Source: Escherichia coli (GTDB taxonomy: Bacteria; Pseudomonadota; Gammaproteobacteria; Enterobacterales; Enterobacteriaceae). Taken from it: 64,000 bases of DNA. Where the stretch lies: assembly GCF_013315695.1 (NCBI RefSeq), contig NZ_CP054353.1; one strand, written 5' to 3'. The position numbers are program-made. Of this stretch, positions 18,501 to 21,500 are shown in pieces. The stretch's first letter is position 1; the number at the start of each line of letters is the position of its first letter.

Positions 18501-21500
18501 CAATACCGTGTGAGCGACAAAACCGTTGAAAAAGTCATGGCTGTGGTGCGTGAGCACAATTACCACCCGAACGCCGTGGCAGCTGGGCTTCGTGCTGGAC
18601 GCACACGTTCTATTGGTCTTGTGATCCCCGATCTGGAGAACACCAGCTATACCCGCATCGCTAACTATCTTGAACGCCAGGCGCGGCAAAGGGGTTATCA
18701 ACTGCTGATTGCCTGCTCGGAAGATCAGCCCGACAACGAAATGCGCTGCATTGAGCACCTTTTACAGCGTCAGGTTGATGCCATTATTGTTTCGACGTCG
18801 TTGCCACCTGAGCATCCTTTTTATCAACGCTGGGCTAACGACCCGTTCCCGATTGTCGCGCTGGACCGCGCCCTCGATCGTGAACACTTCACCAGCGTGG
18901 TTGGTGCCGATCAGGATGATGCCGAAATGCTGGCGGAAGAGTTACGTAAGTTTCCCGCCGAGACGGTGCTTTATCTTGGCGCGCTGCCGGAGCTTTCTGT
19001 CAGCTTCCTGCGTGAACAAGGCTTCCGTACTGCCTGGAAAGATGATCCGCGCGAAGTGCATTTCCTTTATGCCAACAGCTATGAGCGGGAGGCAGCTGCC
19101 CAGTTATTCGAAAAATGGCTGGAAACGCATCCGATGCCGCAGGCGCTGTTCACAACGTCATTTGCGCTGTTGCAAGGGGTGATGGATGTCACGCTACGTC
19201 GTGACGGCAAACTGCCTTCTGACCTGGCAATTGCCACCTTTGGCGATAACGAACTGCTCGACTTCTTACAGTGCCCGGTGCTGGCAGTGGCTCAACGTCA
19301 CCGCGATGTCGCAGAGCGTGTGCTGGAGATTGTCCTGGCAAGCCTGGACGAACCGCGTAAGCCAAAACCTGGTTTAACGCGCATTAAACGTAATCTCTAT
19401 CGCCGCGGCGTGCTCAGCCGTAGCTAAGCCGCGAACAAAAATACGCGCCAGGTGAATTTCTCTCTGGCGCGTTGAGTACGGGAATGGACATCAATATCCT
19501 TAAAGTAAATAAGACTATTCCTGGCTATTATTGATAAATGCTTTTAAACCTGCCCGTTAATTACCTCACCAGCTGAAATTCACAATAATTAAGTGATATC
19601 GATAGCGCGTTTTTGCATTATTTTGTTACATGCAGAGATGAATTGCCGATTTAACAAACACTTTTCTTTGCTTTTGCGCAAACCCGCTGGCATCAAGCGC
19701 CACACAGACGCAACAGGGACTGTTAACCGGGGAAGATATGTCCTAAAATGCCGCTCGCGTCGCAAACTGACACTTTATATTTGCTGTGGAAAATAGTGAG
19801 TCATTTTAAAACGGTGATGACGATGAGGGATTTTTTCTTACAGCTATTCATAACGTTAATTTGCTTCGCACGTTGGACGTAAAATAAACAACGCTGATAT
19901 TAGCCGTAAACATCGGGTTTTTTACCTCGGTATGCCTTGTGACTGGCTTGACAAGCTTTTCCTCCGCTCCGTAAACTCCTTTCAGTGGGAAATTGTGGGG
20001 CAAAGTGGGAATAAGGGGTGAGGCTGGCATGTTCCGGGGAGCAACGTTAGTCAATCTCGACAGCAAAGGGCGCTTATCAGTGCCTACCCGTTATCGGGAA
20101 CAGCTGCTTGAGAACGCTGCCGGTCAAATGGTTTGCACCATTGACATTCATCACCCGTGCCTGCTGCTTTACCCCCTGCCTGAATGGGAAATTATCGAGC
20201 AAAAATTATCGCGTCTGTCGAGCATGAACCCGGTTGAGCGCCGTGTGCAGCGCCTACTGTTAGGTCATGCCAGCGAATGTCAGATGGATGGCGCAGGTCG
20301 ATTGTTAATCGCGCCAGTACTGCGGCAACATGCCGGGCTGACAAAAGAAGTGATGCTGGTTGGACAGTTCAACAAGTTTGAGCTGTGGGATGAAACAACC
20401 TGGCATCAACAGGTCAAGGAAGATATCGACGCAGAGCAGTTGGCTACTGGAGACTTATCGGAGCGACTGCAGGACTTGTCTCTATAAAATGATGGAAAAC
20501 TATAAACATACTACGGTGCTGCTGGATGAAGCCGTTAATGGCCTCAATATCCGTCCTGATGGCATCTACATTGATGGGACTTTTGGTCGCGGTGGTCACT
20601 CACGTCTGATCCTCTCGCAGCTTGGCGAAGAGGGGCGTTTGTTGGCGATCGATCGCGACCCGCAGGCTATCGCCGTTGCGAAGACTATTGATGATCCGCG
20701 CTTCTCCATCATCCACGGACCTTTCTCCGCGCTGGGCGAATACGTTGCCGAGCGCGATCTTATCGGCAAGATCGATGGCATTCTCCTCGATCTTGGCGTC
20801 TCTTCACCGCAACTTGATGATGCTGAACGCGGCTTTTCCTTTATGCGCGATGGTCCGCTGGACATGCGTATGGACCCAACCCGTGGGCAGTCAGCCGCTG
20901 AATGGCTACAAACCGCAGAAGAAGCCGATATCGCCTGGGTATTGAAAACCTATGGTGAAGAGCGTTTTGCCAAACGCATTGCCCGCGCCATTGTCGAGCG
21001 TAACCGCGAACAGCCGATGACCCGCACCAAAGAACTGGCGGAGGTCGTGGCTGCTGCAACGCCGGTGAAAGATAAGTTTAAACATCCCGCGACCCGGACC
21101 TTCCAGGCGGTGCGCATTTGGGTAAACAGTGAACTGGAGGAGATAGAGCAGGCGCTAAAAAGCTCGCTCAACGTGCTGGCCCCGGGTGGGCGGCTTTCGA
21201 TCATCAGCTTCCACTCGCTGGAAGACCGTATTGTGAAACGTTTTATGCGTGAAAACAGCCGCGGTCCGCAAGTTCCGGCAGGGTTACCGATGACTGAAGA
21301 GCAGCTCAAAAAACTGGGTGGCCGTCAGCTGCGAGCACTAGGCAAGTTAATGCCGGGCGAAGAAGAGGTGGCTGAGAACCCTCGTGCCCGTAGTTCAGTT
21401 CTGCGTATTGCAGAGAGGACGAACGCATGATCAGCAGAGTGACAGAAGCTCTAAGCAAAGTTAAAGGATCGATGGGAAGCCACGAGCGCCATGCATTGCC

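Follow-up and report, generated by a model that had tools for sequence, protein, structure and literature searches.

Three phased GTGG boxes at the mra promoter of Escherichia coli as the operator of MraZ

Three evenly spaced GTGGG repeats lie in front of mraZ in the Escherichia coli sequence analyzed here (a single stretch of 64,000 nucleotides of contig NZ_CP054353.1, assembly GCF_013315695.1, hereafter the window). This arrangement raises the question of whether the repeats constitute the binding site of the MraZ repressor, or whether they can be explained by chance, by a structure formed by their G-runs, or by a signal residing in the 5' leader of the mraZ mRNA. As argued below, the three boxes are almost certainly the MraZ operator of the E. 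coli mra promoter (Pmra). An MraZ operator at Pmra is already known, and its identification is in itself of low interest.

Direct reading of the sequence around the boxes gives cagGTGGGaaattGTGGGgcaaaGTGGGaataaggggtgaggctggcATG, and the broader reading of positions 19600-20560 includes ...tttcaGTGGGaaattGTGGGgcaaaGTGGGaataaggggtgaggctggcATGttccgg.... On the + strand, GTGGG occupies positions 19985-19989 (box 1), 19995-19999 (box 2, preceded by a conserved TT) and 20005-20009 (box 3, with an AAAGTGG core), i.e. it recurs with a period of 10 bp. The original prediction, which placed the repeats at 19985, 19995 and 20005, one helical turn apart, and the start of mraZ at 20029, was exact to the base. 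The pattern GTGGG-N5-GTGGG-N5-GTGGG has one exact match in the 64-kb window, either strand being considered, and with up to 2 mismatches allowed the mean number of matches in dinucleotide-preserving shuffles is 0.19. The shorter pattern GTGG-N6-GTGG-N6-GTGG was also found once in the window, versus 0.01 expected. GTGGG by itself is no more frequent in the window than expected (92 observed, 111 expected), so the signal is the phased triplet and not the word itself. Chance does not account for the phased GTGG triplet.

The gene order in this part of the window is as follows: ilvI, ilvH/N, cra, a 601-nt spacer, mraZ, rsmH (PF01795), ftsL, ftsI and murE. The ORFs, the Pfam/NCBIfam assignments and the RefSeq annotation agree on mraZ followed by rsmH-ftsL-ftsI-murE, which places the repeats at the head of the dcw cluster, as had been proposed. 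The mraZ gene (20029-20487, + strand), encoding the box-binding repressor, is a 152-aa ORF that matches Pfam MraZ (PF02381, E = 4e-47) and the NCBIfam equivalog TIGR00242 (MraZ), the latter with 225 bits versus a cut-off of 98. In the RefSeq record of an identical strain, a 28-aa 'fruR/shl operon leader peptide' is annotated between ilvH/N and cra; its site corresponds to window positions 18250-18420, upstream of cra (by homology to positions 1826-1912 of locus L002), and is unrelated to the boxes.

The cra-mraZ spacer is 100% identical to that of E. coli FDAARGOS_497 and was found in 5423 of the 5426 complete genomes. The strain is closer to FDAARGOS_497 and to O157-type sequences than to K-12. 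Nevertheless, in the 141 nt around the promoter the sole difference from K-12 MG1655 is A to C at 19965, within the promoter spacer, and from the -10 hexamer through the 12th coding base (19972-20040 plus the boxes) all 76 bases are those of MG1655. The suggestion that the repeats match the known layout of the MraZ autoregulatory operator is therefore borne out by the identity of the locus, which is E. coli Pmra with 1 mismatch in 141 nt. Compared with the operator of K-12 Pmra (mraZ1p), we are dealing with the same locus and the same sequence, with no functional difference.

The promoter scan revealed a near-consensus sigma-70 promoter on the + strand, composed of the -35 hexamer TTGACA (19948-19953), an 18-nt spacer and the -10 hexamer TAAACT (19972-19977), with a consensus match of 10/12. 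This promoter is Pmra. Both hexamers are well kept among the 59 unique Enterobacteriaceae sequences described below (-35 in 53-57, -10 in 53-58 of them). Box 1 begins 7 nt past the -10 hexamer and 44 nt before the mraZ ATG, and the gap between TAAACT and box 1 is 7 nt in 74 of 81 species. According to PMC5089854, which cites Hara 1997, the mraZ 5' UTR has a length of 38 nt. A leader of this length puts the transcription start (+1) at about 19991, past box 1 and ahead of box 2, whereas the usual 7-nt spacing rule puts it at about 19984-19985. The former position is 14 nt past TAAACT, which is unusually far, and +1 is thus uncertain by about 6 nt. Under either estimate the boxes overlap the transcription start. 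The description of the repeats as lying upstream of mraZ consequently holds for the coding sequence only: with respect to transcription they cover and just follow the start and are located 3' of the -10 hexamer.

The terminator scan detected no terminator in 19400-20100. The promoter region has also been connected with PdhR, for which weak in vitro binding and a 1.7-fold ChIP enrichment at the mraZ promoter were described (PMC3265435). The gel-shift probe used in that work maps to window positions 19928-19971 and includes the -35 hexamer; the probe region also overlaps an imperfect inverted repeat, CTTGTGAC...CTTGACAAG.

The arrangement of Pmra and the boxes agrees with what is published on the E. 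coli regulator. According to the summaries of Eraso 2014 in PMC7761207 and PMC8475190, the repeated sequence to which MraZ binds in E. coli lies downstream of the Pmra -10 box, and MraZ represses Pmra, affecting the genes from mraZ through murC. The comparison with the published operator, which the original prediction had named as a means of verification, thus places the repeats where they were reported (PMC7761207 and PMC8475190).

The conservation of the boxes was analyzed in 80 other Enterobacteriaceae loci (one genome per species, MraZ identity 88-96%), which together with the window gave 81 loci and 59 unique sequences. As the 120 hits listed in a search for homologous proteins were all at least 85% identical, a distant set was taken from representatives of 50% clusters; it comprised nine mraZ loci of 1-3 kb each, with MraZ identity of 36-63%. 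Exactly one GTGG-N6-GTGG-N6-GTGG array was present in each mraZ upstream region (up to 400 nt) in 81/81 Enterobacteriaceae. The proposal depended on the repeats being retained upstream of orthologous mraZ genes, and the triplet was indeed recovered in 80/80 other species of the family.

Within the array, the GTGG of all three boxes, the TT before box 2 (TTGTGG) and the AAA before box 3 (AAAGTGG) are invariant in 59/59 sequences, and the fifth G is kept in 58/59 in box 1 and in 58/59 in box 2. In contrast, the 2-3 positions that precede box 1 and those that follow boxes 2 and 3 are free to vary. Invariant cores next to variable positions form the pattern expected of base-specific protein contacts. 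A G in the fifth place of box 3 (position 20009) is confined to E. coli, while the base there is T, C or A in 80/80 other Enterobacteriaceae species, including E. albertii. Since the box-3 fifth G is restricted to E. coli, the conserved recognition unit is GTGG and not GTGGG. The repeats were originally described as GTGGG; this is what the window carries three times, but it is one base longer than the unit retained in the family. The enterobacterial consensus can be sharpened to (N)GTGGGA-WTTT-GTGGG-NN-AAAGTGG-N.

In 8 of the 9 loci of the distant set, the coding strand ahead of mraZ carried at least two GTGG boxes with a period of 10, and in five loci at least three phased GTG were found. Period-10 arrays were almost absent from the remainder of these loci. 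In one case (L089, metagenome contig ERZ25069786, with MraZ 52% identical) no phased GTGG boxes were identified within 1200 nt upstream, and the operator of this mraZ-rsmH-ftsL locus may have diverged or been lost.

The 35-nt operator occurs in a single copy in E. coli and has a match of at least 99% identity in 5391 of the 5426 complete genomes. Two strains deserve a mention. E. coli WS3294A (L083, NZ_CP035819.1), as 1 of 5423 genomes, bears a 5-bp deletion, CAGTG, corresponding to window positions 19983-19987, by which the GTG core of box 1 is removed and the remaining boxes are moved with respect to the -10 hexamer. This may be a naturally occurring operator-down allele, or else the assembly may be in error. 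E. coli strain 4/4 (L084, NZ_CP023826.1) contains an IS5 element in the cra-mraZ spacer, approximately 430-1400 nt upstream of mraZ (window position ~19746); Pmra and the three boxes are intact, and a C-to-T change is present two bases before box 1.

Downstream of box 3 lies the Shine-Dalgarno region of mraZ, AGGGGTGAGG (20014-20023, + strand), which includes a GGGG at 20015-20018 that is in phase with the boxes (+30). In 20 of the 81 Enterobacteriaceae loci, i.e. about a quarter of the species (Buttiauxella, Cedecea, Pseudescherichia and others; among them loci L055, L057, L058, L061, L065, L068-L072, L074-L076 and L078-L082), approximately 10 extra nt separate box 3 from the ribosome-binding site. 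This insertion appears to duplicate the AAGGGG segment. The distance from box 1 to the ATG is 52-54 nt with the insertion and 43-45 nt without it, a difference of one helical turn. We considered GGGG as a fourth box and rejected it: it is kept in 35/37 sequences when it is located about 10 nt before the ATG, but in only 6/15 when the 10-nt insertion has pushed it away from the start codon, and it is devoid of the T of GTG. The pattern of conservation indicates that selection in Enterobacteriaceae maintains three boxes and not a fourth.

The G-runs of this region could also be read in another way, namely as tracts of an intramolecular G-quadruplex (G4), formed either by the non-template strand or by the leader of the mRNA, which would control Pmra instead of MraZ binding. 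Positions 19987-20018 of the + strand do fit the G3+ N1-7 x4 pattern (GGG-7-GGGG-6-GGG-5-GGGG); moreover, a G4 was reported in PmraZ of S. aureus, and conserved G4 motifs were claimed for Gram-negative mraZ promoters, including that of E. coli (PMC11796246). However, the third G3 tract exists in E. coli only, as 80/80 other Enterobacteriaceae species have GTGG[T/C/A], which leaves GG, and the fourth tract acts as the ribosome-binding site, decaying once it is away from the start codon. The four G3+ tracts with loops of up to 7 nt that define a promoter G-quadruplex are thus not kept among relatives. What is invariant, i.e. the T of GTGG, the 10-bp phase and the AAA/TT flanks, is not required by a G4. 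The motif is, furthermore, 1 of 4 in the window, versus 0.75 expected, and at least one appeared in half of the simulations; in the leader RNA a G4 was not chosen by ViennaRNA with G-quadruplexes allowed. Control of Pmra by a G4 in place of MraZ is therefore extremely unlikely, and the G4 is at most a by-product of the boxes. It may be added that the region owes its canonical G3+ x4 motif, with three tetrads, to the single base G at 20009, and that this motif is missing in the relatives. We regard it as very unlikely that a lineage-specific, ligand-targetable G4 layer sits atop the operator in E. coli, or that GGGG at 20015-20018 serves as a weak fourth box; if the latter were true, such a box would link binding of the repressor to blocking of the ribosome-binding site.

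Another explanation is suggested by the fact that the boxes fall within the 38-45-nt leader or at its border, and by the good conservation in Enterobacteriaceae of the entire region that runs from the -35 hexamer to the ATG: the repeats might be kept as part of the mraZ 5' leader (an mRNA structure or translation signal) or as the initial transcribed sequence, and not as a protein operator. Against this, no Rfam family was found in 19400-20100, even at E <= 1, and the leader has no convincing fold. Conservation is, besides, periodic, with invariant cores and free flanking spacer positions, and the boxes persist in distant taxa even though their distance to the start codon ranges from ~50 to ~250 nt. 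Periodic conservation together with a variable distance to the start codon argues for a binding site read from one face of the DNA, not for a translation signal, and we find a role confined to the leader or the initial transcript scarcely credible.

The evidence for MraZ as the protein that reads these boxes can be brought together as follows. The MraZ operator, as defined in PMC12957436, is built of phased direct GTGG repeats, which in the window begin at 19985, 19995 and 20005 of the + strand. They are located at the dcw/mra promoter, directly upstream of mraZ; they are kept in orthologues, the cores better than the flanking spacers (81/81 Enterobacteriaceae, 8/9 distant loci); and the cognate MraZ retains the residues that contact DNA. 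On sequence grounds, all the defining features of an MraZ operator are present. In the study of Eraso et al. 2014 (J Bacteriol 196:2053), the purified protein reportedly bound three direct repeats that lie between Pmra and mraZ; EMSA, mutagenesis of the boxes and reporter assays are said to have been part of that study, with binding and MraZ-dependent repression reported for a K-12 sequence identical to the one analyzed here.

The two DXXXR motifs of the window MraZ are D11-S-K13-G-R15 and D87-G-A-G-R91. K13 and R15 align residue for residue with M. genitalium MraZ (chains 9qlr/9qlg), and R91 of the second D-x-x-x-R motif was aligned with R86 of the same chains. In the cryo-EM structures of M. 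genitalium MraZ, Lys13, Arg15 and Arg86 of adjacent subunits of the opened ring contact successive boxes (PMC12957436). By analogy, E. coli MraZ probably contacts its boxes in the same manner. Spaced by 10 bp, the GTGG cores of all three boxes face the same side of the helix, and adjacent subunits of the MraZ oligomer would each insert beta-strand residues of the double SpoVT/AbrB 'cradle' (K13, R15 and R91 in E. coli numbering) into successive major grooves. Because the boxes start 7 nt past the -10 hexamer and extend across the transcription start, MraZ bound to them would be expected to block initiation or escape of RNA polymerase. Repression would presumably operate through steric occlusion of the start site, and its outcome is negative autoregulation of mraZ together with the promoter-proximal dcw genes. 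E. coli MraZ was reported to be a dodecamer, in contrast to the octamer of mycoplasma (PMC12957436).

Comparison with other known systems shows what is common to these operators and what is not. The MraZ site of M. genitalium and other Mollicutes, AAAGTG[T/G]-N3 repeated 3-4 times (PMC12957436; Fisunov 2016), shares with the E. coli array the GTG(G/T) core, the 10-bp period, the direct orientation and the location at the dcw promoter, and its A-rich 5' flank resembles AAAGTGG at box 3. The contacts through K13, R15 and the Arg of the second motif are likewise common to M. genitalium and the window MraZ. On the other hand, M. genitalium has four boxes and an octameric MraZ, whereas E. coli has three boxes, its fourth phased G-run being the ribosome-binding site. 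The repeats bound by B. subtilis MraZ are GTGG[A/T]G, present three times with a 4-nt spacer (White et al., bioRxiv 10.1101/2022.02.09.479790). Both arrays are made of three direct GTGG boxes with a 10-bp period at the mra promoter and are linked to repression of the operon; they differ in the bases after GTGG, which are [A/T]G in B. subtilis and G-A/G/N in enterobacteria. In B. cenocepacia, a repeated GTG motif is also located past the -10 box and overlaps the transcription start, but it consists of four 7-nt repeats with 3-nt spacers, and the leader has 100 nt (PMC7761207).

What is new here is limited to the sharper enterobacterial consensus, the E. coli-specific G of box 3 and the evidence for three selected boxes. 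The site itself is the main known point of transcriptional control of the division and cell-wall cluster of E. coli, and in this case it was correctly annotated from the raw sequence.
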